From a bacterium (GTDB lineage: Bacteria > Myxococcota_A > Bradymonadia > UBA7976 > UBA1532): a stretch of 39,927 nucleotides of DNA. A program made the translations under genes and the position numbers. Positions 1 to 30,965 of this stretch are shown in pieces; positions within the stretch are counted from its first letter, which is position 1; each line of letters begins with the position of its first letter. The notes beneath the pieces were generated by a model. That model searched no databases and was not told where the DNA came from. It saw only the letters and a program-made list of their open reading frames with translations. The stretch lies in the NCBI GenBank assembly GCA_030427205.1, contig JAUHXC010000011.1, forward strand, positions 236,016-275,942, written 5' to 3'.

Positions 1-246
1 TCCGCTGCGGACACGGCCGAGCGGGCGGGAGACGCACAGACCGGGCTCGTGCTGCACGGGCTCATCGGGCACGCCACCGCCGAGTTGATGGGCAGCACGC
101 GGCATCCAGGGTGGCGGGCTGCCGCCCTCGACCTGCTCGACCCGGACGGGAAGACCGAGCCGCCCATCGGCCGGGAGGACGCCGTCCGACTCTTCGCCCT
201 CGCCCTGGGTATCGACCCGGACGCCGACGAGCCCGATGCGGGGTGA
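1..246 (+). CDS. Partial CDS (3' end), paralog of gene 5041..5478. Partner protein of the sigma-like gene downstream. Function unknown.
   Basis: Reading frame is open from position 1. Translation (…TGLVLHGLIGHATAELMGSTRHPGWRAAALDLLDPDGKTEP…LFALALGIDPDADEPDAG) is about 75% identical to the C-terminus of ORF 5041..5478. Same ATG..TGA overlap with the next gene as in the second copy. Confidence 0.5.
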   Translation, partial: SAADTAERAGDAQTGLVLHGLIGHATAELMGSTRHPGWRAAALDLLDPDGKTEPPIGREDAVRLFALALGIDPDADEPDAG

Positions 247-865
247 CGCGGTAGCACGGCGCATGCTGGCCGCCCTCCTGCGGCTGGAGGCTGAACCATG
301 GCCCGGGGGCTTGCGGGCCTACAGCGCGATGCTGGTGGCGCTATCGAGCCGCTGCGAGCAACACCGCGCGGCCAAGGGTGAGATCTACGACTGGCTTGAG
401 CGGGTGGCCGGCGGTGCCCTCGTGGTTCGCAACGAAGTGCGCCGCGAGTGTCTGCGCGACGCCTTCCACGAGGCGGTGGCCAGCATCGACGGGTTGCTGC
501 TGCACTTCCGGGCCGGGCTGCGGGATGACCGACGGCCGAACCTGCGCTCCATGCTCGTCGCCTGGATCGTGTGGCGGGCCGGCGACCTGCGCCGGTCGCT
601 CCACCAGCGCCACGATGACCGGCGCTCTCGGGGCGTAGACGCCACGCTGCACCTCGCCGTGACGCCCGTCGCCGACAACCCCGAGACCACCGTGATTACC
701 GCCGACATCGCCGCGATGCTGGCCGCTGACGGCTCGCCCGCTGCCCGTGCGCTACTGCTCGTCGGAGCCGGGTACAGCGTCGCCGAGGCCGCCCGCAGGA
801 CCGGTGCCAGCCGGCAGCAGGTGTACCGGGCTCGGGGGCTGCTCCGGGAGACTGTCGACGGGTGA
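236..865 (+). CDS. Sigma-70 region-4-like HTH protein (divergent ECF-sigma-like or LuxR-type regulator), paralog of 5464..6088.
   Basis: C-terminal ...ARALLLVGAGYSVAEAARRTGASRQQVYRARGLL is a classic sigma-70 region 4 / HTH signature. About 60-65% identical to 5464..6088 over the whole length. Its ATG at 236 overlaps the upstream stop at 244-246. Confidence 0.55.
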   Translation: MRGDAVARRMLAALLRLEAEPWPGGLRAYSAMLVALSSRCEQHRAAKGEIYDWLERVAGGALVVRNEVRRECLRDAFHEAVASIDGLLLHFRAGLRDDRRPNLRSMLVAWIVWRAGDLRRSLHQRHDDRRSRGVDATLHLAVTPVADNPETTVITADIAAMLAADGSPAARALLLVGAGYSVAEAARRTGASRQQVYRARGLLRETVDG

Positions 866-937
866 ACCGTAGGGGCACGCCGTCGCGCCTCCATCCTGAT
901 GAGCGGCAGCCGGCGGGCTCAGCCGCCACGACGGCCG

Positions 938-1000
938 TTTACACAACGCATGTGTACGCAAACAAATGTTGCGTATACACTGTCCCATACATAGGACAGG
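938..1000. promoter_or_regulatory. AT-rich regulatory island with two small palindromes: GTACGCAAACAAATGTTGCGTATAC at 954..978 and CTGTCC-N8-GGACAG at 980..999.
   Basis: Local GC drops sharply in an otherwise 70% GC sequence. The inverted repeats were read directly. The region sits between the sigma-like gene and ORF 1022. Confidence 0.3.
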
Positions 1001-1021
1001 ACGCAAGCCGCGTTTGGGGGT

Positions 1022-1627
1022 ATGGTCGGCCTCATGAAGACTTCACGCCAGATCGTATTGGATACCGAGGGTGGCACGGTCACCATCCACGGCTTGGAGG
1101 GGGCTGACGCCTGCCTTCGTGCCGCCATTGCGGTACAGGCCAGCCTCGGAACCATGCCCGTATACTTCGCTGAGCTTATCTCGGCTGCGCCGAGTGCGCC
1201 CATCCAGCCGGCCCCCGAGCCGGCGGTTCAGGAGCCTGTCTCGGGGAAAGGGGTGTCCACCGCGGACACTCCAGCGCAGGCCCCGAGTCGCCCTGCGCCC
1301 ATCCAGCCGGCACGAGAGCGCGCAGAGGCAGCGGGCCCCAGCCGCCGCAAGCGCAGTCAGCCTGTGATGCCTTTCGTCAAGAAGCTCATCCGGCAGGAGC
1401 CCAAGATGTGGCTGTCGGCTTCGGAGATCATGGAGAAGTGCGAGGGGCTGGGCTGGGAGAATATGGCGCAGAATGCGCGTGGGGCCGAGTCGGTGCGCCG
1501 GGCGCTGGATCGCGCCATAGAGCGTGGAAAGGCGCCTATTCGTCGTCGAGTCTCGCAGCACGACAACCGGACACGGCTCTACTGGCTCGGGGAGTCCGAG
1601 CCGCCGGAGTTGCCAATGCGCACGTAA
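1022..1627 (+). CDS. Hypothetical protein with a Pro/Ala-rich linker and a C-terminal possibly winged-helix-like region. GC3 is lower than in the neighbouring genes.
   Basis: ORF of 201 aa with GGGGG 5-6 nt upstream of the ATG. Atypical codon usage (many A/T-ending codons) suggests foreign origin. No recognisable family. Confidence 0.4.
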   Translation: MVGLMKTSRQIVLDTEGGTVTIHGLEGADACLRAAIAVQASLGTMPVYFAELISAAPSAPIQPAPEPAVQEPVSGKGVSTADTPAQAPSRPAPIQPARERAEAAGPSRRKRSQPVMPFVKKLIRQEPKMWLSASEIMEKCEGLGWENMAQNARGAESVRRALDRAIERGKAPIRRRVSQHDNRTRLYWLGESEPPELPMRT

Positions 1628-1820
1628 TACGCGAACGGCCCAGCGTTGCAGCGCTGGGCCGTCCTAAGAGACTGAGCTTCGCGGGTTGACCCGTGAGACC
1701 ACGCCTCAGGTAGCGCTGAAACGGTCTCACAGCATGGTGCAGGGGTCAATAGGGGCTCGCCTTATTCTCCGGTCGCAGAATCTGCGCGCCGGAGGAGAGG
1801 ATATTCCCAAGCTGAAAGTC

Positions 1821-1848
1821 GCGGGTTCGAGTCCCGTTTCCCGCTCCA
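1821..1848 (+). other. tRNA 3'-end-like fragment: T-stem GCGGG, T-loop TTCGAGT, stem CCCGT, acceptor 3' strand TTCCCGC, discriminator T, CCA. Putative integrase attachment core. No foldable 5' half was found upstream.
   Basis: GGTTCGAGTCC is a canonical T-loop, followed by 7 nt, a discriminator and CCA, then immediately by a terminator. The sequence resembles the 3' end of tmRNA/tRNA genes. The upstream 60-350 nt could not be folded into a cloverleaf or a tmRNA. Confidence 0.5.
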
Positions 1849-1852
1849 CTAA

Positions 1853-1876
1853 GCCCCCGATTTCGGGGGCTTTTTT
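1853..1876. terminator. Rho-independent terminator (GCCCCCG-ATTT-CGGGGGC-TTTTTT). Bidirectional: it also ends the convergent integrase gene.
   Basis: Perfect 7-bp GC stem, 4-nt loop and T6 run read directly. The integrase stop codon lies inside the T-run on the other strand. Confidence 0.75.
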
Positions 1877-3158
1877 ATTTCGAACCTCCTGAGCCAGTGC
1901 CCGCGGAGGGCGAGGTGTTACCGGAGGTGTTACCGCTGGTGTTACCAGCCGCCGAGGCGGCCTCGACGAGCGCGTGCATGCGGTTGACCGCGTCGAGCTT
2001 CGCCTCGGGGTGGATGCCGGCGTAGAGCGTCGTCATCTTCTCCGAGGTGTGCCCCATCTGGGCCCGCACGACCGGCCCGGCGACGCCATCTTCGACCAGG
2101 GTCGTATTGACCGTGCGCCGAATGACCTGCGGCCCGCACCGCGTCGGGATGCCCGCCGCCTTGCCCGACAGCCGCAGGATCTTCTGCAGCGACGAGCCGT
2201 GGCGGTGACCACCCGTATCGGCCGGGAAGACCAGCCCAGCCGCCAGGCCGGGGTGCTGCTCGCGAACCAACCGCATGCGATGGTCGTCGAGCACCTCCCT
2301 GATCCGGTCAGTCAGGGCGACCTCGCGGGGGTTGTCGGTCTTGGTCAACTCGACATGGCCCCGCCAGACCGCCCGGCACACGTTGATCACCCCGCGCGCC
2401 GGGTCCAGGTCCTCCCACTTCAAGGCGTACAGCTCGCCGACCCGCAGGCCAGAGAAAAAGAGCATGTACACCTCGGCGTGCCACTGCGGGTAGTCCCGCT
2501 TCACCGCGTCCAAGAGCGCGCCGATCTGCTCCGGGGTCAGGGTGACCCCCTCGCGCACGTTGCGCACCTTCGACTTCGGCGGGCTCACCCGCGTCGTCGG
2601 GTCCGGCAGGCCGAACTCGGCCGCCATGTCCCGCAGCATCGTCGCCAGCACCCGGTACCACGACCGCAGAGTCGCCTGGGCGTACGGCCGGTCGAAGCGG
2701 TTCTTCTGCTGCTGCGCCCACCCGATCCAGCCGACGACGTCGGCCCGGGTCAGCTCGTCCACCCGCAGCGAGCCGATCACCGGGACGACGAATCGCCCCA
2801 GCACGTCGGCGTAGTGCTCACGAGTGCTCGGTTTCAGCAGCGACCGCTTCGTCGCAGCCCAGGACAGTACGTAGTCGGCGACGGTAGTCGTCGCCGCCTT
2901 CGGACCGCGCCTGTGGGCTGCGCTCGGCCGGACCTCGACGGCCGGCGCTTCGTCCTCGGCCAGCTCGGCCGCCAGCTCGGCGACCAGTGCTGCTCGGGCT
3001 CGCGCCGCCTCGTCGATCGACAACTCGCTCGGCAGCGCCCGCCGCCTCGCTTTCCGTCGTCCGTCGGCGTCTCGTTGCGTGGCCTGGATCCACCAACCTC
3101 CGTTCTCGAGCCGGAACACGCCGGCATACTTCGTCTTCGTCTTTCGCATCTTCGCCAT
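1875..3158 (-). CDS. int: Tyrosine site-specific recombinase (phage-type integrase).
   Basis: 427 aa. N-terminal arm-binding-like KYAGVFRLENGGWW. C-terminal catalytic region GLRVGEL … VIRRT … MGHTSEKMTTLYAG (R…R…H…Y arrangement). Adjacent and convergent to the tRNA-like fragment. Confidence 0.9.
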   Translation of the reverse strand: MAKMRKTKTKYAGVFRLENGGWWIQATQRDADGRRKARRRALPSELSIDEAARARAALVAELAAELAEDEAPAVEVRPSAAHRRGPKAATTTVADYVLSWAATKRSLLKPSTREHYADVLGRFVVPVIGSLRVDELTRADVVGWIGWAQQQKNRFDRPYAQATLRSWYRVLATMLRDMAAEFGLPDPTTRVSPPKSKVRNVREGVTLTPEQIGALLDAVKRDYPQWHAEVYMLFFSGLRVGELYALKWEDLDPARGVINVCRAVWRGHVELTKTDNPREVALTDRIREVLDDHRMRLVREQHPGLAAGLVFPADTGGHRHGSSLQKILRLSGKAAGIPTRCGPQVIRRTVNTTLVEDGVAGPVVRAQMGHTSEKMTTLYAGIHPEAKLDAVNRMHALVEAASAAGNTSGNTSGNTSPSAGTGSGGSK

Positions 3159-3756
3159 TGACCATCTCCTCGATGGCGTCCCGGCGTCGCGCGACGACAG
3201 CGCCGGTGAGCTTAGGGTCGGGGCGGTGGCCGGCGCAACGTGTCAGGAACGCGTCGACGGTCGGGGCCCGGAAGAGCCAGCGCCCGCGGGGCCCGGCGCG
3301 GCCGTCGGGCACGAGCAGGCCCTTGGCGATCCACGACCGCACGGTGGAGGTCGACCCGGCGTGGGTGTAGGCGACGACGTCCTCGACGGTCATCCAGCGC
3401 GGAGGCTCGGAGGCGGGCATTCCGGGCACCCCGAGCCCGCCGGTTGCCCGGAATGAGGCCATCGGCTGGGGCTGTGCGAGCCCGAGGTGCTCGACGATGC
3501 TCGCCAGCATCGTCTCGGCCCGGTCGAAGGGGCCGACCGGGTCATCGGTTCGGCTACCTGCCGCCCACCACCAGCCGACCTCCCCTTCGTGGATGCGCAC
3601 GGTGGCCGCGTCCGCCCCAGCCCCTGGGCCATCCTCCTTGCCCACCCGCACCGCGTAGCCCCAACGGTCCAGGCTGAGCTGGAGTTGGTGGACGTCGAAT
3701 GCGGCCCCGGTGGTGAGGCCGGTGTCGTGCAGCCGAGCATGGGACGGACGCGCCAT
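2818..3756 (-). CDS. Fusion-type protein: N-terminal module homologous to a repeated module of the giant protein (ends in FRATGGLGVPGM), followed by an excisionase/AlpA-type HTH (MTVEDVVAYTHAGSTSTVRSWIAKGLLVPDG…GRWLFRAPTVDAFL). The 3' end is uncertain: the ORF runs about 340 nt into the integrase gene out of frame.
   Basis: ATG at 3756 with GGAGA 4 nt upstream. The segment GWWWAAGSRTDDPVGPFDRAETMLASIVEHL…FRATGGLGVPGM aligns with GWYWSRAWSGDFDGVGPFDRASAMLASLVERL…FRATGADGVPGM of the giant ORF. The HTH_17/excisionase-like motif follows. No in-frame stop before 2818. Confidence 0.5.
   Translation of the reverse strand: MARPSHARLHDTGLTTGAAFDVHQLQLSLDRWGYAVRVGKEDGPGAGADAATVRIHEGEVGWWWAAGSRTDDPVGPFDRAETMLASIVEHLGLAQPQPMASFRATGGLGVPGMPASEPPRWMTVEDVVAYTHAGSTSTVRSWIAKGLLVPDGRAGPRGRWLFRAPTVDAFLTRCAGHRPDPKLTGAVVARRRDAIEEMVNGEDAKDEDEVCRRVPARERRLVDPGHATRRRRTTESEAAGAAERVVDRRGGASPSSTGRRAGGRAGRGRSAGRRGPAERSPQARSEGGDDYRRRLRTVLGCDEAVAAETEHS
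3418..3455. repeat. 38-bp palindromic element, copy 1 (CATTCCGGGCACC-N12-GGTTGCCCGGAATG), in frame inside gene 2818..3756. On the minus strand it encodes FRATGGLGVPGM.
   Basis: Read directly. Arms are reverse complements, with one mismatch in this copy. Confidence 0.8.
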
Positions 3757-3767
3757 GCTCTCCACGA

Positions 3768-3795
3768 TACGGAGGAGAATCGATACGCGGACAAG
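3768..3795 (-). promoter_or_regulatory. Conserved 28-bp upstream motif, copy 1 (plus strand TACGGAGGAGAATCGATACGCGGACAAG), 12 nt upstream of the ATG of gene 2818..3756. Putative promoter/operator.
   Basis: Same motif at 26419..26446 and 27303..27330. Each copy is upstream of a minus-strand start codon. Confidence 0.45.
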
Positions 3796-3946
3796 CCCTT
3801 AGACCAGCTGGCAGGTCGCGGTTGGTGCTGGTTGCCATTCCGACCCACGGATCAGTCAGGATTGTGAAATCGCCATCGGGACTCCGGTCCGCCATGCTTC
3901 ACCTGAGCAGATTCTGCATCCCACCAGCAGGCACAGTGGAGGGCCT

Positions 3947-4570
3947 ATGGACTTCGACCCAGGGCAATCGGAAGCACAGCGCGGCCGACTCATCGCCGAA
4001 CGGCTTCGCCGACCCGACGTCCAAGAAGTCAGAATCCGCGCTGCTTTCGGCTCGTTTGCAATCCCTGTGGGCCCAGGTGAACCGGTCACAGCAGACGAGC
4101 ACGGTTTGGGCGAGGAGTCGGCGGCCATGGTCTCACTGCTCAACCAGTGCGAGATCACGGTTAAGGCGCTACTCCACCCCAGGAGCTACGAAGACGGTGA
4201 TGGCTTCCGCCCGTGGCGCTCATATGCGGTTGGTCTGCTCGACGCCCTGCAGAACCCGGCCTGGAGAAAGCTCGACGTCGTCTACGATCCCGAGCCGACC
4301 GACACGAACCTCATTGTCTTCGGACAGAGCGAGGCCTGGGTCGGTCTACGTTCATCGAGGAGCCGTCGCTATGAATGGACTCTTCGCAGCCAGGGTCCCG
4401 ATGTGCAGGGCTTGACCGCGGACTTCGATATGGCATTCGAGCGCAGTCTGAACCTCATCGATAGGGCGAGCAGTCGTGAAGTAAATGGGGCGAGCAGCCG
4501 TGGACAGCGGCTGCTCGACGCGCGGGCTGATCTCGTAGGACGGCTCCGCGCTCTGCTTGGAGATGGCTAG
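3947..4570 (+). CDS. Hypothetical protein (207 aa), in a lower-GC patch.
   Basis: GGAGGG RBS 6 nt upstream of the ATG. Coding-like codon periodicity. No recognisable domain. Confidence 0.6.
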   Translation: MDFDPGQSEAQRGRLIAERLRRPDVQEVRIRAAFGSFAIPVGPGEPVTADEHGLGEESAAMVSLLNQCEITVKALLHPRSYEDGDGFRPWRSYAVGLLDALQNPAWRKLDVVYDPEPTDTNLIVFGQSEAWVGLRSSRSRRYEWTLRSQGPDVQGLTADFDMAFERSLNLIDRASSREVNGASSRGQRLLDARADLVGRLRALLGDG

Positions 4571-4604
4571 CGGAACACGGTTGAAGTCCGTCTGGACCGT
4601 ATAG

Positions 4605-4871
4605 CTACTCCTCCATCGATTGATCTGGCAATGGCTCGAACAGCTCCTTCACGTCGATAAGCAGCACGGCGGCCAGCGCGCCTATTGTCCGGACGTACAC
4701 ATCGCGCTCGGGCTCGTTCAGCAGCCGCTGAATCGTGCGCGGCGAGACCCCAGCTCGTCGGGCCAGCTTGGCCGTGGAGATACCGGTCTCCTCGATACGC
4801 ATCGCCAGCCGCTTGCGGACGCGGGCCAGGGCTTCGTCGGCGATGATCTGCGGGTCGGCCATGACCCGCAT
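4605..4871 (-). CDS. XRE-family (Cro/CI-type) HTH transcriptional regulator.
   Basis: …ETGISTAKLARRAGVSPRTIQRLLN… is a typical HTH_XRE signature. Small size (88-100 aa). Divergently oriented from the sigma-like module with a palindromic operator between them. The start could also be at 4862 or 4907. Confidence 0.75.
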   Translation of the reverse strand: MRVMADPQIIADEALARVRKRLAMRIEETGISTAKLARRAGVSPRTIQRLLNEPERDVYVRTIGALAAVLLIDVKELFEPLPDQSMEE

Positions 4872-4914
4872 CGTACGCGCGGCATGATTGGCGCGATATT
4901 CCGCCAAATGTAAC

Positions 4915-4946
4915 CGCCTATCCGGTCATATATGGCCGGATAGGCG
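4915..4946. promoter_or_regulatory. 32-bp near-perfect palindrome CGCCTATCCGGTCATATATGGCCGGATAGGCG. Candidate operator in the divergent promoter region between the XRE regulator and the sigma-like module.
   Basis: 11-bp perfect arms (CGCCTATCCGG / CCGGATAGGCG) around an AT-rich core, read directly. Lies in a 170-bp intergenic region between divergent genes. Confidence 0.55.
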
Positions 4947-5040
4947 TTCACTTCGTTCGCGGTTGTCGGTAACGTGCTCTTGCCGAGGGCCCGAGCTGCC
5001 CGTTCGGGTCCACCGTCGGCGACGACAATTGGAGGACACC

Positions 5041-5478
5041 GTGACGATCGATGGTGGATCGGCGCTCGAACTGCGCCGACGGATAGGAGACGTGTATCTG
5101 GGCGACGAGCCCCCGCCCGGGACGAGTCGGGCGACCTGGTTGACGACGGCGCTGGCCCGCGAGCCCGACAACCTCGAGTTTCACGCGATGGCCCGCGACT
5201 TTCTCGCCGTGATTGTGCTGTACAGGCGCCTCGCTGCCGCGCTGGACGCGGTGGAGGACGCGCCGACCGGGCTGGTGCTGCACGGGCTCCTCGGCCACGC
5301 CACCGCGGAGTTGGTCGGCGCGACCCGGGAGCCTGGATGGCGAGCGGCTGCGCTCGACCTGCTCGACCCCGACGGCAAGACGCAGGCGCCCCTCGACCAC
5401 GACGACGCAGTCCGGCTGTTCGCCTTCGCGCTGGGCCTCGACCCTGACGCGGACGGGCCGTCCGATGCGACCCACTGA
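5041..5478 (+). CDS. Hypothetical protein, partner of the sigma-like gene and paralog of the partial CDS 1..246. Could be a cognate anti-sigma or co-regulator (inference).
   Basis: GTG at 5041 with GGAGG 8 nt upstream. C-terminal 65 aa about 75% identical to 1..246. Its stop overlaps the ATG of the next gene. Confidence 0.6.
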   Translation: MTIDGGSALELRRRIGDVYLGDEPPPGTSRATWLTTALAREPDNLEFHAMARDFLAVIVLYRRLAAALDAVEDAPTGLVLHGLLGHATAELVGATREPGWRAAALDLLDPDGKTQAPLDHDDAVRLFAFALGLDPDADGPSDATH

Positions 5479-6088
5479 CCCCGCAGCCGAGCGAATGCTG
5501 GGGGTCGTGCTTCGGTTGGAGTCCGCGCCCTGGCCGGGCGCGCTGTCGGCTTACGGAGCCAACCTGCTCGCGCTGTCGACCCGGTGTGAGCGGCCAGCGG
5601 CGAAGGCCGAGATCTATCGATGGTTCATGCGCGAGGGCGGCGGGGCGCTCGTATCTCGGCATGAAGAACGCTGCGCTGATCTCCGCGACGCCTTCCACGA
5701 GATGGTCGCCAAGATCCCGTGGATCCTGCTCCACTTCCGGGCGGGCCTCGACGCGGACCGGCGGCCGAACCTCAAGTCGATGCTGGTCAGGTGGATCGGC
5801 TGGCGGGCCAACGGCCTGTACGAGTCGCGGCAGCGGCACGCCTCCCGGCGGGCACCGTATCGGCTCAGTGATCAGCTCGCCCCCGGTGGGCCCGACATCG
5901 CTGCCCAACTCGGTGAAGTCCTCGCCCTCCTCGATGGGGCCGACCCGGTCACCCGCGCCCTGCGCCTCGTCGGCCTCGGCCACACGATCGCCGGTGCGGC
6001 CCGCCTCACGGGCGTCAGCCGCCAGAAGATCTATCGAGCCCGCTCGGCCTTGCAGGCGAAGGTCGAGGACGAGCCCGATCGGGACTGA
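5464..6088 (+). CDS. Sigma-70 region-4-like HTH protein (ECF-sigma-like or LuxR-type), paralog of 236..865.
   Basis: …RALRLVGLGHTIAGAARLTGVSRQKIYRARSALQAKVE is a region-4-type HTH. Collinear homology with 236..865. Translationally coupled to the upstream gene. Confidence 0.65.
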
Positions 6089-6102
6089 TCCAAGCCCCCG
6101 GC

Positions 6103-6957
6103 TCACTCGTCTCCATCAGCCGATTCGTCGAACGCCTCTGGCATCGGCCGGTTCCACGTCTCCAACACGAGATCGCTGACTTTCACCGCGACCGCTCCTG
6201 GGAACGGGCCCTTCGCCTGCCTGATCATCCGAGAGACGCTGCTCCTCGACGTTGGCCACTTCGTGTCCTGCGTGATCTCGGCGATCTTCGGCGCGCCGAG
6301 CCCCTTGCCCCACATGCCGAGGCAGGGGCGCATCGCGATCGTCTCCCGCATGCGGCCGACCTTGGCGAGCCGGCCGTAAGCGTTCTCGGGTTCGGCTGGA
6401 TCCATCGACGCGCTGAGCCGGGGCACGTAGCGGATGAGGTCGGCCCGTGATTTGGCTCGGTTCATCCGCTGAAGTCGAGGCCCTGCCCCTTCACCAGCGA
6501 GGCTGAGCTTCGCCAAGTGTCGCCAAGGCGCGACGAGAGGAGCAGCTTCCGCTTCGAGTGGTGGACGCTCCGCAAGGCGTTCGATGAGTTCCCGCGAGAT
6601 CTCCCGGTACGCACCCGGCCCGTCCTTGTCTACGACCTTGGCGGCCAGCTTCATGGTCCCGCGGGCGATCGCGTCGAGGATCATCACGTCGCAGTGGGTG
6701 AGGTCCGCGATGATCTCGATGCCGCATCGCGTGATCATGTCCTCGGTGATGCCCTGAATCATGCGGGACAGGTCGGTGGTCCCGTAGGTTTTGACCGGAT
6801 GCGGAAGCGGTCGCAGACACTTCGCGCAGATCTTCATCTTCGATCCGTAGCGCAGGTGCGTTTTCTTGCAGATGCGGCAGGACAGCTTTGGATCGAGATC
6901 CTTGCGCCGTTTGAGGTCCCCGCGCTTCTTCTTCGTCTTGCTGTCTGGCGGCTTCAT
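6103..6957 (-). CDS. Hypothetical protein with an N-terminal zinc-ribbon-like Cys cluster (CRICKK…CAKC). Lower GC than the surroundings.
   Basis: 284-aa ORF. CxxC…CxxC near the N-terminus. Last gene of the long minus-strand gene train. Confidence 0.55.
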   Translation of the reverse strand: MKPPDSKTKKKRGDLKRRKDLDPKLSCRICKKTHLRYGSKMKICAKCLRPLPHPVKTYGTTDLSRMIQGITEDMITRCGIEIIADLTHCDVMILDAIARGTMKLAAKVVDKDGPGAYREISRELIERLAERPPLEAEAAPLVAPWRHLAKLSLAGEGAGPRLQRMNRAKSRADLIRYVPRLSASMDPAEPENAYGRLAKVGRMRETIAMRPCLGMWGKGLGAPKIAEITQDTKWPTSRSSVSRMIRQAKGPFPGAVAVKVSDLVLETWNRPMPEAFDESADGDE

Positions 6958-7181
6958 AGGGTAGATCGTAGGGCGGCAGATCGGGCCTTTTCCGCATATT
7001 TTGCAGGCTGTTACGCGATTGACGGCACCCTGACGTCTACGGCGCCCTATGTGCCCGAATAGGATCTACCCTGTGGATCCCTCCTGACGAGACACCGAAC
7101 CCTCGGGTCGAGCCGAAATCAGGGCCTCTTCAGAACTTCGCGTGCACGAACCCGTTCGCGGCCACCGGGCTGTGGGTCCGA

Positions 7182-7964
7182 TCAGGCGATCTTGGCGATG
7201 GTGAGGTAGCTGCGGGCGAGCCCGCCGAGGCTGCCGAGCAGCTCGGTGCCGACGCCGGTGGGGTTGGTGACGAGAACCTTGAGTTGGTGCCCGACGGCGA
7301 GGGTGACGAGGTCGAGAACGTGGCCGCCGTTGCTGCTCTGTGCCGCCTGACTCTTGCTGGTCCAGGTGGCGCCGTTGTCGGTGCTGATCTGGACCTCGAG
7401 CACCATCGGGGTCGAGGCGGTGCTGACCGATGCGTGGATCTGGTAGTCGCCGGCCTCGTCGGCGGGGCAGGTGAAGACGCCGGTCGCGGTGTCGTAGCCG
7501 GCGGCGACGTTCACGTCGGCGACGTCGCAGATCAGATCGGTCGAGTCGTTGTTGTTGATGTTGATCGGCAGCGCCCCGACCGACGCGCGAACCCGCACGG
7601 CCGCGGCGGCGGGCTCACCGGCCGGGCCGGCGGGGCCCTGGCCGCTCGCGGAGTGCCAGACGATGCGGTCGGGCAAGGGCTCCTCGACGAACTCCAGGGT
7701 CACCACGCCGTCGACGACGCCCAGGCTGCACACCTGGAACGTCTGGAGCGGCCGGTTCGACGTCCGGCCGATGACCCGGGTCGAGCCCGGGTGCAGGATC
7801 ACCTCGTCGGCGGGGTCCTCGTTGAACCGGATCTGGGTGATGGGCTGGTCGGCTTCGAGGTGAGCGATCAGGCCCAGGTAGAACTTGCGGGGGCCCGCCT
7901 CCTCCTTCACTTCGGGGTAGCCCATGCGCGAGGTGGCGATGCGGTTGTGCACGTTGGATGGCAT
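7182..7964 (-). CDS. Hypothetical protein with a short collagen-like GPAGPAGEP stretch and a C-terminal jelly-roll-like (C1q/TNF-like or tail-fibre-like) region. Tentative.
   Basis: ATG at 7964 with GGAGA RBS. The composition of the C-terminal 150 aa (…NINNNDSTDL…GATWTSKSQAAQSSNG…) resembles C1q-like domains. Similarity not verifiable here. Confidence 0.5.
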   Translation of the reverse strand: MPSNVHNRIATSRMGYPEVKEEAGPRKFYLGLIAHLEADQPITQIRFNEDPADEVILHPGSTRVIGRTSNRPLQTFQVCSLGVVDGVVTLEFVEEPLPDRIVWHSASGQGPAGPAGEPAAAAVRVRASVGALPININNNDSTDLICDVADVNVAAGYDTATGVFTCPADEAGDYQIHASVSTASTPMVLEVQISTDNGATWTSKSQAAQSSNGGHVLDLVTLAVGHQLKVLVTNPTGVGTELLGSLGGLARSYLTIAKIA

Positions 7965-7981
7965 CGGAATCTCTCCAGGTG

Positions 7982-8950
7982 TCAGACCACCCCGGCGTGA
8001 GCCAGGTGGCGATCGATGCGGCTGGTGACCTTGGTCTGGACCCGGGTCCAGGCTTTGGCGTCGGCGCCGCGGTTGTAGTAGCGGCGGAACCGGTTGGGGC
8101 CGGTGTGCCACAGGCGAACGCCACGGGCGGCGTCGCGGACGGTGCCCCCGCGCTTGCGCACGAGGCGCCAGAGCTGGGCGTAGTAGTCGATGGGGACGGC
8201 GATCTCTTCGGTCGCCGACCAGTCCCACGGCTGCCAATCGGCCGGGATGGGCGGCGCCTTCAAGCCGAGGTTGTCGAGGATGGCCAACTCGCGGCCCGCG
8301 TCTCGGTTCCACTGAAAGACGCCCCACGCAGTGATGAGCGGTGCGTCGCCTCGGGGTGCGTCCACCGGCGTGCAGAGCCGTCGCCGGTTGATCTTGGTGG
8401 TCCTGCAGGCCGCGTTGAAGTTGCGGGCCGGGACCGCGAAGGTCCCCCCTTCGCCCTCGGTCTTGGCCAGATGAACCATCGTCTTGACGAAGGACTCGCC
8501 GAGACCGGTCTGGCGGGAGACGTCGGCGATCGGCGCGAGCGCAGCGCCCGGCCTCGAAGCGTTGCGCACGCGCTCTGCCTTGAAGCCAGCTGGGCGTGCC
8601 TTGAAGCGCAGGCTGTAGATCCGGTTGGTGAGGGCCAACAGGCGCTTCGAGTCGAGCCCATCTACCCGCACGACGCCCTCGGGGCCCGAGGCGATCCCGA
8701 CGAGCGTCGGCAAGCCGGACGGCCGTCGACGCTTGTGCTTCGGGCCGTAGGGCTCGCTGGCATCGGGCGTGTAGCGGATCCGGCCGGGCACGGTCCGGGT
8801 CGGCGAGGTGGGCGGGCTCGGTATGAGCCGCGGTTCTGGCGTGGAAGCAGGACCAGCGACGGCCCGCCCGAGGGCCACAGCCCCCGCAGCGATCCCGGCG
8901 GCGGTCGCGATGACCACCCGTAGCCCATCTCGCCCATTCAGACCGGACAT
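7982..8950 (-). CDS. Secreted or membrane-anchored hypothetical protein (N-terminal hydrophobic segment).
   Basis: ATG at 8950 with GGGGAG RBS. N-terminal LRVVIATAAGIAAGAVALGRAVA. No recognisable catalytic motif. Confidence 0.55.
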   Translation of the reverse strand: MSGLNGRDGLRVVIATAAGIAAGAVALGRAVAGPASTPEPRLIPSPPTSPTRTVPGRIRYTPDASEPYGPKHKRRRPSGLPTLVGIASGPEGVVRVDGLDSKRLLALTNRIYSLRFKARPAGFKAERVRNASRPGAALAPIADVSRQTGLGESFVKTMVHLAKTEGEGGTFAVPARNFNAACRTTKINRRRLCTPVDAPRGDAPLITAWGVFQWNRDAGRELAILDNLGLKAPPIPADWQPWDWSATEEIAVPIDYYAQLWRLVRKRGGTVRDAARGVRLWHTGPNRFRRYYNRGADAKAWTRVQTKVTSRIDRHLAHAGVV

Positions 8951-9294
8951 GGGCTCCCCTGCGGGATCGGCGTGCTCTCCCCCGGCTCGACCCAGGCCAC
9001 CTCCAGCGTGAAGCGGGCCTTCTTCTGCGTCTGAGCCAGAAAGACCAGCCGCTCCCCGGGCAGAGTCACCGGCAGCGCGATCATCTGCGCCGCAGGCGCC
9101 AGACCCGCCTCCCACAGCACGGTCTTGCCCGCCTGCCCCCGCAGTTCGAGCCGCCCGGCCGGTGCCGCGTCGGTGCTCGTCGAGGCCCGCGCCGACCAGT
9201 GGTAGCCGGTCGACGACACCGGGACGACGCCGACCTCGACCCAATGGTCGGCCCCCGGCGCCCCGACCCGGTCCGCGGAGATGTGCGTGCGCAC
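8938..9294 (-). CDS. Small hypothetical protein (118 aa, GTG start).
   Basis: Fits the co-directional gene train with 1-nt spacing to the upstream gene. Weak support otherwise. Confidence 0.35.
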   Translation of the reverse strand: MRTHISADRVGAPGADHWVEVGVVPVSSTGYHWSARASTSTDAAPAGRLELRGQAGKTVLWEAGLAPAAQMIALPVTLPGERLVFLAQTQKKARFTLEVAWVEPGESTPIPQGSPCPV

Positions 9295-9295
9295 G

Positions 9296-9697
9296 TCAGC
9301 ACTCCGGGTCGGCGAAGATGGTCAGCTCGACCGTGTACGGCAGCCGCCCTTCGAGCACCTGCACCACGAAGTCGAACTTCGAGCCCGCCTTGAGCTTCAT
9401 CCCGGTGAAAGCGCACGGGTCGCCCGGCCGCTCGTCGGGCGGCACCAGATGCGAGAGCGGCGGCAGCAACTCCGTGCTCTCGTCGTAGGGCGACCAGTAT
9501 GGGCTGCCATAGCCACCCGTCGACTTGAGCCCGAGCCGACACACCCGCAGCCCGGCCGGGTCGTTGGTGTACGCCCGGACGGTGCGGATGGTCATGTCGA
9601 ACGGCACCGTAAACAGCGCCTTGCCGTCGCCGTTGGCGTCGCTGGCGATCACCAGCGGGTGGGAGACGCGCGGGGGTGGGGTGTACTCGACGGTCAT
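9296..9697 (-). CDS. Hypothetical protein (133 aa).
   Basis: ATG with GGAG upstream. Coding-like composition. No family recognised. Confidence 0.5.
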   Translation of the reverse strand: MTVEYTPPPRVSHPLVIASDANGDGKALFTVPFDMTIRTVRAYTNDPAGLRVCRLGLKSTGGYGSPYWSPYDESTELLPPLSHLVPPDERPGDPCAFTGMKLKAGSKFDFVVQVLEGRLPYTVELTIFADPEC

Positions 9698-9747
9698 GGC
9701 GACAGCTCCGATGCCTTCGACAGACGATCAGCGGTGAACCACCGGGC

Positions 9748-10671
9748 TCAGGTCCCGGTGGGCTTCTGGTAGTGCTTGCCGCGCAGGCTGATGCGGATGT
9801 TGTAGGCCTTGGTCAGCTCCAGCTCGGGGTCGGGGAACTCGAGCTGCATCTCGTGCCCCTTCTCGCCGCCCTTGAGGCTGAACAGCGGCGTCGACGACCG
9901 GAACGGCGGGCCAGAGAAGCGCACCCCCAGCTCGTTGCCCCCGCCGGCGGCCGTCAGCACCCCCGTCGTCGGCGGGCACTCGGCGATCCGGGCGAGGCTG
10001 ATCATGCTCGACCCGTTGCGATCGCCCCAGCGCACCAGCGCCTCACCGATGCCCCGCAGGTCAGCGGCGTTGGGCTCGCTGCGGTCGGCCGCCTGCACCT
10101 CGATCTCGATGCCGTGGCCGATGAACGTATTGCCGTCGGGCAGCGCGCCGCCGGTGATCAGGTTGGTGCGGTGGCGGTCGATGGGCACGTCGCTGCCGTA
10201 GGACGAACCCGGGTCGTCGATGCCCTTGTGAAACGCCTTGAGGCTGCGGACGGCCTGCCCGCTCATCGAGCGGATGCTGTCGCTGAGCACGCCCTGCTTG
10301 AGCGTCAGCACGGCATAGAGCGGGGTCGGGGTCTGCACCCGGCCGACGATGTCGTTGCGGGTCACCGGCGAGCGCCGGGGCAACTTGTACGCCTTGCATG
10401 CCTGCGTGCGCGCCTGCCGCCGCTGCAAGAGCCGGCGGATGACCTGACTCATCTGCTGCCGGCCCTTGTTGGCGCGCTTGAGCTTGCGGGTGACGAGCAC
10501 GCCTCGGTTGCCGGGCAGCTTGCGCAGCATCGGGGCGAACTTCTCGGCCAGATCACCCAGGTCTTCGCTGTCGGCGTCGAGCTGGTCCATCAGCCGTTCG
10601 AGGCGGTCGATATCAGCCTGATCGGCCTCGACGATGAGCGTCAGGTCCGGGTCATAGAGATCGGGGTCCAT
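9748..10671 (-). CDS. Hypothetical protein (307 aa) with an acidic N-terminus.
   Basis: ATG at 10671 with AAGGGAGA RBS. No recognisable motifs. Confidence 0.55.
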   Translation of the reverse strand: MDPDLYDPDLTLIVEADQADIDRLERLMDQLDADSEDLGDLAEKFAPMLRKLPGNRGVLVTRKLKRANKGRQQMSQVIRRLLQRRQARTQACKAYKLPRRSPVTRNDIVGRVQTPTPLYAVLTLKQGVLSDSIRSMSGQAVRSLKAFHKGIDDPGSSYGSDVPIDRHRTNLITGGALPDGNTFIGHGIEIEVQAADRSEPNAADLRGIGEALVRWGDRNGSSMISLARIAECPPTTGVLTAAGGGNELGVRFSGPPFRSSTPLFSLKGGEKGHEMQLEFPDPELELTKAYNIRISLRGKHYQKPTGT

Positions 10672-10711
10672 GGGTCTCTCCCTTCGGTGTGGGTCATGAG
10701 CCGCGGATGGC

Positions 10712-11365
10712 TCAGTACAGGTCCTCGTCGTCGTCCAGCTCGATGAGCGCGTCGCCCTCGACTTCGAGTGCGCCGACGGTCATCGCCTCCTCCTCGGTCT
10801 CGCGGTGGGCCTCGGCCAGATTCTTGAGCTTGTCGACCGCCCCGCGGATGTCGTCGTCGATCTGGTGGTCGAGCTGCTCGAGGTCGTCGACGCCCAGCTC
10901 GCCCGGCTTCTTGCGGGTGATCGCGCCCAGGCCCTGCGTCGCCCCGCTGTCGGGCCCGCTCTCCATGAAGTAGATGATCGCCAGGGTCCACGCGGAGACC
11001 CCCGACGCTTCGAGCCCGGCCGCCTCACGGTGCTTGCCGTGGTGGCGCGCGCGGCGGGCGAGCACCCCCGTGATGACGGTGAACGCCACCATCACCATGC
11101 CCCGCGAGGTGGGGCTCAGCTTGGCCCACCACTCGGCGCTGCCTCGACGGGCCATGCCTTCGAGCAGCCCGAGCGCCGCGGCCGAGAGACCCGCGCCGGC
11201 GAGCTTGAAGCCGATGCGGGCGGCCTCGCCCATGTCATTGCCATTGGCGACCACCAGACGGGCGGTCTCCTCCTTCTTCTTCGCCGGCGCCTTGTTCTTG
11301 GGCCGTTCCAACGTGCGCGACATCGCTGTCTCCTCGTCGCTGGGGTTGACGATGGTGGTGAACAT
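10712..11365 (-). CDS. Small membrane protein (2-3 TM segments) with an acidic C-terminal tail.
   Basis: Its ATG at 11365-11363 shares one nucleotide with the stop of the giant gene (TGATG). Hydrophobic segments AARIGFKLAGAGLSAAALGLL, MVMVAFTVITGVLA, AWTLAIIYFM. Confidence 0.6.
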   Translation of the reverse strand: MFTTIVNPSDEETAMSRTLERPKNKAPAKKKEETARLVVANGNDMGEAARIGFKLAGAGLSAAALGLLEGMARRGSAEWWAKLSPTSRGMVMVAFTVITGVLARRARHHGKHREAAGLEASGVSAWTLAIIYFMESGPDSGATQGLGAITRKKPGELGVDDLEQLDHQIDDDIRGAVDKLKNLAEAHRETEEEAMTVGALEVEGDALIELDDDEDLY

Positions 11366-14300
11366 CAGCTCGCGCTCCGGTAGCGATGGCGCACGGTGCC
11401 GATGACGGTGCGGGGCACGCCCGCGGGGACTCTGCGTTCGTTTGCGGCGTAGGCGCCGGTGAGATCTCGGGCGGTGAGGACTGCCGCGACAGCGTTGGTG
11501 CCGTCGGCGGCGATGACGATGCCAGCGTCCTGGACCAGCTCGGTCGCGCGGACATGGACCGCGTCGCCGCCGACCAGCTTGCGGTGGCGGGTCGGGCCCA
11601 TGCCGTTGTTCTCGACCTTGACGATGACCACCAGCGGGATATCGGGCGGCACCTTCTTCTGGAGCGCCTGGGCCGCGCTCATGCGCCGGGTCTGGTCGAG
11701 CCAGACGAGGCGCTGCGCGTGGTCGATGCCGAGCACGAGGTAGCTGCCGATGGGGGTCTGGGGCGGAAGCTGCATACCGTCTCCGTAGGGATCGGGGGCC
11801 ATCGCCCGGCTCTGCGGTCGGCGATGCGATGGGTTCGTGCGGGTGCGCTGCATGCCCGGTCGCAACGGGCGGCCCCACCACCACTTGCTGGTGTCGTCGC
11901 GCAGCGCGTACTTGTGCTCGTCGTTGGCGGCGAGGCGCAGCCAGCGCGCCCAGCCGGCCTGGGTCGGAGGCAGCAACACCGCCCCCTCGGGGGGCTTGCC
12001 GCCGCGCCGATGTATGTAGACCTCGCCGTTGAGGTCGAAGGGGAAGCGGGTCTCGGCGGGGCCGTAGTTGCTGCCGAAGTAGCTCGCCCGGATGCTGGCG
12101 ATCTCGGCCTTGGCGGTGGCCTCGACCCGGGGCCACGCGGTCTCCAGCCATGCGGGTGCCGCGTGGGACCAGCCCATGGCCTGCCAGCCGCGGTAGGGGT
12201 TGGCGATGGTGCTCTTGACCAGCCGCTCGACGCCGTCGGTCCAGTTGTCGGCGACGTCGGCGGGCCGCGTGGGCGAGACGTCGTCGTCCGTCTTGTCGCG
12301 CGCGACGTTGGCGACCTTGTGGCCCTCCCACGAGGCGTCCCCGGCGAGGCGCAGCCAGATCATGCGGTGCGTACCCTGCCAGCCGAACCGGCCGACCTCG
12401 TACCAGTCGTCATCCCAGCGCAGCCACGAGCCGGGGAACAGCGGCGGGGTGCCTTGCCGAGCGAGGATGTCGTGCGCGCCGGCCTTTCGCGCGGCGGCGA
12501 GCAGCCCGGCCCACGGCCAGATGTCGCGGTCGATGCGGGCCACGGCGTCGAACGCGGCGTCGGCGCCGGCCAGCAGCCGCTCGGCGCGCTCGGGGTCGAC
12601 GGCGTCGCGAGCCTCGACGAGCTGGCTCGCGCCCGATTCGAGCAGCTTGATCGCCCGCGCGGCTTCATCGGCGCGGCGCTTGGCCTCGGCAGCCGCCCGC
12701 AGCTTGTCCAGGCGCTTGCGGGTCTCGTCGGGCGTACGGCTGATGAGCAGCAGCACCTCGTCGGGGCCCAGCTCGAGATCTGCTCCCGGGTTGGCGATGG
12801 CGTCCGAGCCCTCCAACAAGGCGCCCATCCAGCCCTGCTTGCCCTGGATGAGGTTGAAGCGCAGCCCGTCCATTGATCGCCGCGAGAAGTAGTAGCGGAT
12901 GGCGACGGTCGAGAGCGTATTTCCCTGCCGTACCGCCCGCCCGTTGCGCTGGTTCAGCGTCGCCGGCTCCCACGGGAGATCGGCGTGGTGGATGGCGCAG
13001 GTGCGCGTCTGAAGGTCGAGGCCCTCGTAGGCGATGCTGTTGGCGATCACCACGTCCAGCTTGCCCTCGTTGAAGCGGTCGGCGATGCGCTGTCGGGCGT
13101 CGCTGCTCTTGGCGAGCTGGCCGTTGAGTACGCCGATGCGGCTCGCCTTCAAGCCACGCTTGACCAGCGTCTCCTTGAGCCATCGGTGCCCGGCGATGGC
13201 TTGTAGGAAGACTATGTGTCCGCAGAAGGTGTTGCCGGCGATGTAATCGGCGATGGCATCGAACTTCGGGCTGTTCGGCCGGTAGCCCTGCGCCGACTTG
13301 TAGTCGAGGCCCCGGTCCATCTCGGCGTGCACGGCTACCAGACCCATGCGCGCCAACAGGCCCAGCACCTTGTTCGACTTGTCACCCCGTCGCATCGCAT
13401 CCAGCTCGGCCTCGATGCGGGTGACGTAGGTCTCGTACTTGTCTTCCTGCGCCTCGTCCATGTCGACCTCGACCAGCTCGGTCGTGGGCTCGGGCACTTC
13501 GAGGCCGATGTCGGGGGGCTGGATGAACTCGCCCCAACGCAGCAGGATCGCCTTCAGCTCGTCGAGGCGCTGGAAGCCGGTCACCGCGGGGCGCTCGCTG
13601 GCCTCCATCGTGGCGTCGATGACGAGCCGCGGTTCGATCGTCAGGAAACGGCTGATGAACGCCTCGGGGTCGTGGATCCCGTGGTCGCGCCACAGCTCGC
13701 CGTTGACGTAGCTCCACAGGTTGTAGAGTTCGAGTGGGCTGTTCTTCGCGGGCGTCGCCGAGAGCAGCACGACGAAGCCGTCGCGGGCGCGGACGTCCCG
13801 GGCCCGGGCGTCCAGATTCCACGCGCGCTTGCTCGCCGATGACTGCCCCATGAACCGCGGGATGCTGCCCTCGCGGTTCTCCGGGCTGTGCAGGCCCTTG
13901 TAGTTCTGCGCTTCGTCGACGATGAGCAGATCGACGCCCAGCTCGGACCAGCGGATGTCATCGGCCTTCCAGCTCGGCGGCAGCTCCATCATCTGCGCCA
14001 GGAAGGCCCGCACGCCCTGCTCGAGCAGCGCCTGCTGCCGCTCGGATGGGTTCGTGCGGTTGCGCGCCGTGCGCTGGGCCAGCCGGACCGACCGCTGAAG
14101 CTCGGTGGCGCCGGCCGCCAGCCGCTCGAACTCGTCGGCGGTGATCCCGGTGCGCATGAACGCTGCGGGGGTGACGAGGGCCAAGTCGTAGAGCCCTGCG
14201 GCGAACCGGCGCCACTTCACCTCGCGGTCGTCCTTGTTGTCCGGCCCGTACTTCAGCCCGCCGTGCCGGCCTGGGGTCGCCTTCTCGCCGATGGTCACTA

Positions 14301-24174: not shown

Positions 24175-24745
24175 CGCAGGATCCCGTGGGCATTGATGGT
24201 GAAGTTGCTCGGCCCGCGCTCGATCTGCCCGGCCACCAGCCGCGGCCCCGGCCGGTCGAACGGATGGCGCCACCATGCGTCGGTCGAGCCCTTGCGGGTG
24301 TCGTAGACGATCGCGTCGATCACGCCCGCCGGGCTCTCGGGCGCCACCCCGCCCTCGGCGACCAGCCACAGCTCGTCCATGACCGCCGACGTCACGAGCC
24401 ACACCGGCCCACCGCGCGGCTCGACCTCGACCCCGCCCCGCAGCTCGATGCGCACCAGCCGGCCCAGCTCGACCAGATCGCCCGGCGCCCCGTCCGGCCG
24501 CCGCACCGCGCGCTCACCGCCCGGCTCCAAGCCCCAATGCAGCAACCGCCACGTCTCCTCGACCGGCTGGCGCACCTCGACCGACTCGACCGCCGCCTCG
24601 ATCCCGGCGACCGCCGCCCGGACTCCGGCCCCCACGAGCCGCAGCCCATCGCCGCGCTCGACCCGCACCGCGCCCTCGGGCACCAGCTCAGTGCCGTCGA
24701 CGAGGCGCAGCCGGACCAGCTCGCCGATATCGGTCCAGCGCGCCA
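24171..24745 (-). CDS. Hypothetical protein (191 aa), translationally coupled to the giant gene.
   Basis: ATG at 24745 overlaps the upstream stop (ATGA). Its stop overlaps the giant-gene ATG (ATGA). The longer N-terminal extension in the ORF track is Arg/Gly-rich and overlaps a better ORF, so it was discarded. Confidence 0.5.
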
Positions 24746-26418: not shown

Positions 26419-26446
26419 TACGGACGGGAATCGATACGCGGACCAG
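26419..26446 (-). promoter_or_regulatory. Conserved 28-bp upstream motif, copy 2 (TACGGACGGGAATCGATACGCGGACCAG), 11 nt upstream of the ATG at 26408.
   Basis: 25/28 identical to copy 1. Same distance to the start codon as copy 1. Confidence 0.45.
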
Positions 26447-27302: not shown

Positions 27303-27330
27303 TACGGACGCGAATCGAGACGCGGACCAG
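27303..27330 (-). promoter_or_regulatory. Conserved 28-bp upstream motif, copy 3 (TACGGACGCGAATCGAGACGCGGACCAG), 35 nt upstream of the ATG at 27268.
   Basis: 25-26/28 identical to the other copies. Confidence 0.45.
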
Positions 27331-27389: not shown

Positions 27390-27600
27390 CGTGAGTCGAG
27401 CCCGCGCAGTGAGCCACGCGGTGGTCCAGGCCCGCCTCGTGGAGACGGCCCTGCCGCCGAGCCTCGTGGTGCTCCAGGCCCGGACCCGAGGCCCGATCCA
27501 CGGGGTCTTCCTCGCGGTGGTCCTGGCCCGGAGCCTGGGGTCGACCCTGGGGGTGAGCCTCACGGTGAGCCTGGGGCGGGAGGCCGCCGATTCCAGCGTT
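27390..27600. repeat. Degenerate short-period (about 9 nt) GC-rich tandem repeat tract (CCTCGTGG / CCCGG / GGCCC units) in the intergenic region between the element-like gene train and the chromosomal lipoprotein gene.
   Basis: Read directly. Translation in one frame gives a collagen-like PRG/GPG low-complexity string. No RBS or start context supports a CDS. Confidence 0.4.
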
Positions 27601-30797: not shown

Positions 30798-30965
30798 GAG
30801 GACACCCCGGGTTCCAGTGGCAGGAGCGAGGCTATCACCCGGGTGATGGTCACGCCAGAGACCTGCCCGCGAAGGCCCACCGATCCAGGAGTTCGCCCTT
30901 GCCTGAGACGGTGACCGGTGCTCTCTTGGCGGTCGGCATCAGCGCCGAATCTGACAGGAGGCCCG

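Follow-up and report, generated by a model that had tools for sequence, protein, structure and literature searches.

The DNA stretch analysed here, a window of 39,927 nucleotides from a bacterium of the Bradymonadia (GenBank assembly GCA_030427205.1, contig JAUHXC010000011.1, positions 236,016 to 275,942 of the forward strand), raises the question why two related pairs of overlapping genes lie on either side of an integrase region at its left end. The first pair, copy A, consists of A1 (1..246, plus strand), of which only the C-terminal 81 codons of a small partner protein are visible because its start lies outside the window, and A2 (236..865, plus strand), which encodes a 209-aa sigma-like or helix-turn-helix (HTH) protein with an ATG overlapping the A1 stop codon. 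The second pair, copy B, consists of B1 (5041..5478, plus strand), encoding a 145-aa orphan helical partner with a GTG start and GGAGGA upstream of it, and B2 (5465..6088, plus strand), whose ATG overlaps the B1 stop and which encodes a 207-aa protein with divergent likeness to extracytoplasmic function (ECF) sigma factors. Most likely, two related integrative elements adjoin at one tRNA site, which would explain the copies on both flanks.

BLASTP comparison of A2 with B2 revealed 53% amino acid identity over 206 aa (E 5e-62), and all identity values for this larger pair fell between 52 and 55%. The visible part of A1 matched the C-terminus of B1 with 79% identity over 68 aa (BLASTP, E 4e-37), or 73% over 78 aa by Smith-Waterman alignment. 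At the DNA level the copies share 70% identity over about 830 columns, including a 210-nt stretch with 80% identity found by repeat search. The initial annotation had described two collinear paralogous pairs flanking the integrase region; both pairs and their paralogy were recovered far beyond chance. Its identity range of 60–75% is too high for A2 and B2. An overlap of stop and start codons is present in both copies as described, but it is not the same one, spanning 11 nt in copy A (236..246) and 14 nt in copy B (5465..5478), and B2 starts at 5465 instead of 5464. The tRNA fragment, integrase, xis-like gene and XRE gene named as lying between the copies are all there, together with two further open reading frames (ORFs) at 1022..1627 and 3947..4570. 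The GC content of the window is high (65–74%), and a periodicity of third-position GC (GC3) typical of coding DNA was found for 1..246(+) (GC3 0.88), 236..865(+), 1875..3158(-), 4605..4871/4907(-), 5041..5478(+) and 5465..6088(+).

Between the copies lies an attachment (att) core at 1804..1848 on the plus strand, a 45-nt 3′ piece of tRNA-Gly(CCC) that reaches from the anticodon loop as far as CCA and lacks the 5′ half. These 45 nt match with 100% identity the 3′ part of an intact tRNA-Gly(CCC) in L004, a related locus from the metagenome-assembled genome (MAG) GCA_030426085.1, and divergence is complete directly 5′ of them. In L004 the intact tRNA gene directly adjoins an integrase 43% identical to that of the window. 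Since this homologous integrase abuts an intact tRNA gene with the identical 45 nt, the core in the window is a junction of two element arms, with the integrase arm to the right and A1-A2-orf201 to the left; copy A ends about 940 nt from it. ARAGORN found no intact tRNA in the window, and Rfam detected only a T-arm-like fragment (1820..1837) followed by a terminator-like hairpin. This hairpin with its T-run (1851..1876, plus strand) stands directly after the core, and a similar one follows the tRNA in L004. A second copy of the core was found neither in the window nor in the related loci L004, L005, L008 and L012.

When the tRNA gene lies on the plus strand, an integrated element has the intact tRNA at its left junction and a bare 3′ core at its right one. 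The window shows what is expected of the internal core of a tandem array, a 3′ tRNA end without its 5′ half and with element DNA on both sides; the outer features, an intact tRNA and a further core copy, were not found within it and may lie outside. Tandem accretion at att sites is documented, the second element entering the reconstituted tRNA of the resident one (PMC5704250). A bare core followed by an integrase arm is what such accretion produces; an attP-type junction of a composite or excised form would look alike, and the evidence that separates the two readings is indirect. The likeness to arrays formed by integrative and conjugative elements (ICEs), integrative and mobilizable elements (IMEs) and cis-mobilizable elements (CIMEs) at tRNA or tmRNA genes lies in an internal att core that carries only the target's 3′ end and has related arms on both sides. 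The difference is that only one junction is visible here; any integrase of the element carrying copy A, the intact tRNA and the outer att sites would be beyond the window. No leftward extension of the window was obtained: a look-up of the exact A2 protein gave no match, nor did an exact 43-nt DNA search among viral and metagenome contigs, and profile-guided scans of such contigs likewise brought up no relatives.

The integrase itself (1875..3158, minus strand, 427 aa) is a tyrosine recombinase (Pfam Phage_integrase PF00589, E 2.8e-19) with both a catalytic and an N-terminal SAM-like domain (PF14659, E 4.5e-5; phrog_1, E 9.7e-56), and its homolog in the related locus L015 is 99% identical. The xis-like gene next to it (2818..3756, minus strand) is of the HTH_17/excisionase type (phrog_66). 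The GTG at 3765 is replaced by GTC in L015, which makes the ATG at 3756 the conserved and probable start. The ORF of this gene extends about 340 nt (2818-3158) into the integrase gene in another frame before its stop, which may be a real long overlap or else reflect a frameshift or a mis-called end.

The initial annotation had left it undecided whether the two copies came from tandem elements or from a duplication within one element, and had proposed a phylogeny of the copies. In a neighbour-joining tree, A2 and the protein of locus L012 fell on an early branch and B2 with P0001 and L015 inside a different clade, so that the two are not sisters. A 3-residue insertion in A1 is common to P0026, P0027, P0031, P0034 and P0036, and the B1 group is without it. 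Copy A agrees with L012 in 94.8% of its DNA over 1..829, A1 being 96% identical to P0026 of that locus, and the agreement ends abruptly inside the last 12 codons of A2. Because A and B belong to different clades and each has closer relatives elsewhere, the analysis argues against a recent local duplication and favours two independently acquired modules; of the two origins first considered, the tandem one is thus favoured over a recent duplication in place.

Recombination between such modules is suggested by L015. Compared with the window, its integrase is 99%, its xis-like gene 90% and its B2 96% identical. Its XRE gene, operators and the first ~60 aa of its B1 (1975-3489) resemble the A-type L012 (5403-6922), the remainder of B1 is nearly identical to copy B of the window (4605-6088), and a cassette of GCHY1-HTH, QueD and QueC genes is inserted after B2. 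This mosaic indicates that the modules recombine like phage immunity regions.

The conserved unit is larger than a gene pair. In copy B a gene for an XRE-family repressor candidate of 88–100 aa (4605..4907, minus strand; HTH_26 E 1e-8, HTH_3 E 1.8e-5) is oriented divergently from B1-B2; Pfam detected its Cro/C1-type HTH domain and no peptidase domain. This triad, XRE(-)/B1/B2(+), was seen in L004, L006/L013, L008, L012 and L015, XRE and B2 also occur in L005 and L007, and a divergent XRE gene precedes the pair at every locus with sufficient flanking DNA. No B1 partner was found by tblastn in L007. In L005 the partner has diverged beyond the reach of tblastn; its place is taken by an ORF of 168 aa that carries a B1-like '...HPAWRAEVLDLL...' motif and overlaps the start codon that follows. 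Between XRE and B1 of the window lies a 32-bp near-perfect palindrome (4915..4946; 16-nt arms, one mismatch), a candidate operator. The repeats in this intergenic region are variant-specific, either palindromes or triplicated half-sites, being of the CTACCGGTAGAC type in L012 and L015 and of the TACAGGTAGATCAT type in L004; as candidate operators they fit the pattern expected of such sites.

The family is very rare. Among 5.8 billion proteins we found 17 relatives of B2 and 19 of B1, and an exhaustive profile search of 1.84 billion representatives returned 80 clusters at E <= 1e-3. A single MAG, GCA_030426085.1, carries four module copies on four contigs, one of them with an in-frame stop. This B2-family copy (L013, contig 25, 10425-11111; SAP*PRAQ) is annotated as a truncated protein of 174 aa, and at least one of the four copies is thus decaying.

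With about equal weight for and against the model as a whole, we propose that copy B is the genetic switch of an element integrating at tRNA-Gly(CCC) and that a second element has accreted at the same site. The short XRE repressor would bind the operators between XRE and B1 and keep the divergent, translationally coupled B1-B2 operon off. Once repression is lifted, B2 would be made together with B1 and would activate element-specific 28-bp promoters heading the xis-like/int unit and a minus-strand block of about 21 kb, while B1 may act as an obligate partner modulating B2, either as inhibitor or as co-factor. Copy A would come from a second, heterotypic element or element remnant with a module of this type, and the right arm of that element, A1-A2-orf201, abuts the same att core.

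B2 is predicted to begin with an extension of about 65 aa, followed by a helical part resembling sigma-2, a linker and an HTH resembling sigma-4. For the proteins of the window, Pfam detected C-terminal HTH models only (HTH_29, HTH_23, HTH_7), apart from a weak Sigma70_ECF match of A2 (residues 123-205 to profile positions 90-177), for which HTH_29 reached E 1.4e-6. The sigma models were run on 39 diverse members of the B2 family. Sigma70_ECF (PF07638) matched 17 of them at profile positions ~80-180, a stretch wider than the HTH, with scores at or close to the gathering score of 21.1 bits and two members just above it. Sigma70_r4_2 matched 16 (best E 8.4e-4, below the gathering score), Sigma70_r2 none, and the HTH_29, HTH_23, HTH_28 and HTH_7 models more members. 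The NCBIfam model with most members matched was TIGR02937 (22 of 39), always in single collinear stretches, the best being P0091 with residues 65-198 aligned to profile positions 26-162 of 165 (E 1e-6; 28.5 bits against a cut-off of 42.9).

Profile-profile comparison pointed in the same direction. Against a profile of nine genuine ECF sigmas (RpoE of E. coli K-12 and eight annotated plasmid genes), local hhalign of the B2 family scored 33.7 (P 1.8e-4), with 100 columns aligned between regions 2.3 and 4.2. Controls scored 10.9 +/- 1.4 when columns were shuffled and 22.2 +/- 2.8 (maximum 31.4) when blocks were shuffled with the HTH left intact. The global mode (P 4.8e-6) placed the 'RDAFHE' helix of the family on sigma region 2.1/2.2, and greedy and global alignments set this helix opposite 'VVQEAF' of RpoE and 'PNLKSMLVRWIGWRA' opposite 'SAFYTWLYRIAVNTA'. 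Comparison with the single RpoE sequence was uninformative (probability 0.6%). The AlphaFold2 model of B2 (predicted local distance difference test score, pLDDT, 84.8) comprises six N-terminal helices, a disordered linker (131-142) and a four-helix C-terminal HTH domain, and the recognition helix of the HTH is nearly invariant across the family. ECF sigma/anti-sigma pairs likewise combine a protein of about 200 aa, two helical domains and a disordered linker with a co-transcribed small partner, and B2 is linked to them by its family's sub-threshold collinear matches to TIGR02937 and PF07638 and by the hhalign agreement.

Several results weigh against a sigma assignment. The B2 of the window itself matched no sigma model at E <= 1, and B2 reached no curated sigma threshold for family assignment. 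No canonical ECF sigma was among the 80 profile matches from 1.84 billion representatives, and sequence searches of the PDB with two profiles returned generic HTH proteins only. The Foldseek list for B2 consists mostly of sigma factors in RNA polymerase complexes, but at E ~1, so that the structure search gave no confirmation. The earlier description of B2 as sigma-70 region-4-like finds support in sigma model matches that are mostly sub-threshold, and structure searches did not confirm it. On balance, B2 is more likely than not a very divergent ECF sigma derivative that has gained about 65 aa at its N-terminus; retained function as a sigma factor appears somewhat less likely.

The partner B1 remains an orphan helix bundle without anti-sigma features. 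It had been described as having no recognisable family, and it indeed lacks a Pfam match; neither an anti-sigma domain fold nor the HxxxCxxC zinc motif was found in it. A role as ImmA-type metalloprotease or Cro-like protein was considered and dropped, as neither an HExxH motif nor an HTH occurs in B1 and Pfam gave no match.

The putative targets of B2 are three exact copies of a 28-bp motif in the window, against 0 expected, reading CTGGTCCGCGTATCGATTCCCGTCCGTA on the minus strand. The first (3768..3795, minus strand CTTGTCCGCGTATCGATTCTCCTCCGTA) stops 11 nt short of the conserved xis-like ATG, with the integrase gene downstream. The second (26419..26446, minus strand) ends 10 nt before the ATG at 26408, which belongs to the first gene of a long minus-strand block reaching to ~6103 and including a gene for a 4345-aa protein. 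The third (27303..27330, minus strand) lies 34 nt upstream of the ATG at 27268 with GGAGGA in between. Each copy thus heads a minus-strand unit, and with respect to two start codons the motif spans about -39 to -12. It is kept in L015 at the xis position and is conserved over its full length, with partial dyad symmetry around TCGA, and a perfect 18-bp palindrome stands at the corresponding position in L004. A sigma-70 consensus promoter was not found in 1..7200. Read as TGGTCC-N17-CGTA, the motif resembles ECF promoters, e.g. the SigW type TGAAAC-N16-CGTA.

Partial dyad symmetry of a motif conserved in full length, together with the palindrome in L004, would also suit a dimeric HTH protein. 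It is possible, and less probable than the switch proposed above, that B2 is not a sigma factor and instead forms with B1 a heteromeric master activator under a cI/XRE-type repressor, functioning like SetCD, AcaCD or FlhDC and binding dyad-symmetric 28-bp sites that overlap promoters. In ICEs of the SXT-R391 family, SetR represses and the two-subunit activator SetCD turns on xis/int and element operons (PMC4542580). The present locus resembles SetR/SetCD (also AcaCD and the FlhDC type) in having a repressor gene divergent from an operon for what would be a two-subunit activator. It differs in that no FlhD or FlhC Pfam match was obtained (A1, A2, B1 and B2 at E <= 0.1, family members at E <= 1), that the XRE protein has no S24 autoproteolysis domain, and that no conjugation genes were found in the window. 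The activator reading is opposed by the missing FlhC and FlhD matches, by the collinear likeness to ECF models and profile, which reaches past the HTH into regions 2.1-2.4, and by the position of the motif, which covers the -35 to -10 interval and not an upstream activator position. A sigma-like B2 acting on the 28-bp motif is therefore preferred.

The second point to be weighed is the junction. Rather unlikely, in our view, is a single composite element holding both modules, in which the core at 1804..1848 would either join two ends in attP fashion, in an excised, circular or concatemeric form, or be an internal site of an old composite that by now moves as one, and copy A would be the module of the far end, an ancient intra-element paralog. 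A core between two element arms has the exact look of attP, the 39.9 kb hold no second core and no intact tRNA, modules lie near element or island ends in L008 and L004, and composite tandems can transfer as one unit (PMC5704250). On the other hand, A and B are only 53% identical, belong to different clades and have each a much closer relative in another sample and another context, and in L004 the module of the B-type element sits solely at the end with the integrase. On its right side the window holds chromosomal-looking genes, e.g. for a cation efflux protein and a methyltransferase, which also speaks against a purely composite structure; the right end of the element was not identifiable in the window. 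Two adjoining elements thus account better for the copies than one.

The elements are apparently not phages. A prophage was considered and rejected, as none of the scanned ORFs matched terminase, portal, capsid or tail genes (Pfam, PHROGs). Comparison of phage records with DNA 1..8000 gave only two short matching stretches, one of them tRNA-like, and no relatives of the module or of the integrase were found in IMG/VR. Next to the module, the cargo varies between loci and is of conflict type. In the window, 11365-24402 (minus strand) is a single ORF of 4345 aa (GC3 0.90) with DUF6884, an Eco57I/N6-adenine methylase and an SNF2 helicase with Helicase_C, matching DrmD, BrxH and mad2 of PADLOC. 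Neighbouring genes at other loci resemble those for nucleotide-binding leucine-rich repeat receptors (NLR-like): L005 encodes two NACHT-FGE-sulfatase proteins (3888-11153), one with a TCAD9 domain, and L013 a TIR-kinase-FGE-sulfatase protein (11230-13764). L015 has the GCHY1, QueD and QueC genes. The module therefore appears to travel with conflict-system cargo.

This variable, defence-like cargo in L005, L013, L015 and the window would also agree with a triad that serves as portable regulator or sensor of the neighbouring conflict or defence genes and not as an excision switch, the duplication then reflecting two adjacent cargo islands. We consider this improbable, since a motif copy stands directly before the xis-like/int unit and is kept there in L015, since integrase and tRNA are linked to the module in L004 and the window, and since PADLOC has no matching model for B1 or B2; none was matched by orf201, orf207 or orf284 either. 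That copy A belongs to a conserved host housekeeping operon without any link to mobile elements, the finding named at the outset as refuting the element view, is itself largely refuted and very improbable indeed: the A-type module of L012 does lie among host-like genes (UbiB, Nramp, IF-2B family) and without an integrase, but the family is extremely rare, one MAG has several copies of it, its context differs at each locus, copy A is close to an att core lacking the tRNA 5′ half, and the L012 copy breaks off within the A2 3′ end and has an IS1-like gene nearby. At this breakpoint (L012 6889, window 829) the L012 protein has an atypical C-terminus (YRKRIQITDLGE), the IS1-like gene follows about 0.8 kb downstream and no integrase is nearby. 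As A2 of the window keeps the family-typical C-terminus (YRARxxL), L012 is the rearranged copy.

Among described systems, the Xre/Xpf pair is one of the closest to the proposed switch. In PBSX, an element-encoded XRE-type repressor stands above a group IV (sigma-2 plus sigma-4) factor that turns on late genes. Regulatory details of Xre/Xpf (Pcf) from this defective prophage of Bacillus subtilis were reportedly given by McDonnell et al. in 1994. Xpf is listed as a group IV sigma factor tied to the PBSX prophage (PMC10141391). The likeness lies in an element-encoded XRE repressor combined with a sigma-like positive factor. The present system differs in several respects: close homology is not detectable, B2 has its ~65-aa N-terminal extension and a translationally coupled upstream partner, the host lineage is uncultured and of high GC, and there are no phage structural genes and no relatives in IMG/VR. 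Four things set the present case apart: an extremely divergent and rare sigma-like family, its N-terminal extension, the upstream orphan partner and two heterotypic switches on either side of one att core, 5 kb from each other.

Should B2 work as a sigma factor, it would stand for an ECF-like lineage that branches deeply and is very rare (80 clusters among 1.84 billion representatives), has an unusual architecture and an orphan partner and is dedicated to controlling mobile islands, and it would add a self-contained transcription circuit to the known routes by which integrative elements decide on excision. If it is only an HTH activator, the locus would hold nothing more than a common type of regulatory module, from a family of elements that has been poorly sampled. 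The recombining XRE/B1/B2 cassette marks a family of islands in an uncultured high-GC lineage, with NLR-like, TIR, DNA-modification and giant methylase-helicase cargo, and could be used to find such islands. The tandem junction would also be a natural setting for cross-talk between heterotypic switches. One can speculate, as a doubtful extension of the model, that B1-B2 is an undescribed partner-dependent ECF branch acting as master switch of lineage-restricted, tRNA-integrating islands with defence-type cargo, and that tandem heterotypic modules cross-activate their 28-bp promoters in a helper/satellite-like manner. The possibility of such cross-activation follows from the nearly invariant recognition helix of the family.

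Further features of the locus were noted. A2 is followed by a spacer of lower GC with short inverted repeats (866..1021) and by orf201 (1022..1627, plus strand), an unknown protein gene with moderate GC3 signal and no Pfam, PHROG or PADLOC family, with which the left-hand arm probably ends. An uncertain gene call with a weak coding signal, orf207 (3947..4570, plus strand), lies between the xis-like gene and XRE; it has no Pfam or PHROG family and no counterpart in L015. In L004 a protein of ~575-590 aa without Pfam family is encoded directly after, and convergent to, B2 (10703-12424). Its homolog in the window (30918-32693, 73% amino acid identity) lies ~25 kb away in opposite relative orientation, and this displacement implies that a large insertion and an inversion separate the two elements.

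Three tandem repeat units of 48 nt each (CCTCGTGGTGCTCCAGGCCCGG...) occupy 27414-27579, shortly past the last 28-bp motif. This region may be the boundary between the motif-driven block and cargo- or host-like genes (PI-PLC-like, FGE-sulfatase, cation efflux, methyltransferase). A palindrome of ~38 nt, CATTCCGGGCAACC-N10-GGTTGCCCGGAATG, was found in four copies (3408-3465, 19305-19362, 20400-20457 and 21150-21207), all inside minus-strand coding regions, namely the xis-like gene and the 4345-aa gene. It could be a hairpin or binding site at the DNA level or a protein linker motif: in frame, with self-complementary codons, the copies encode F-R-A-T-G-x-x-G-[LV]-P-G-M following a repeated GPFDRA..MLAS.VE domain.

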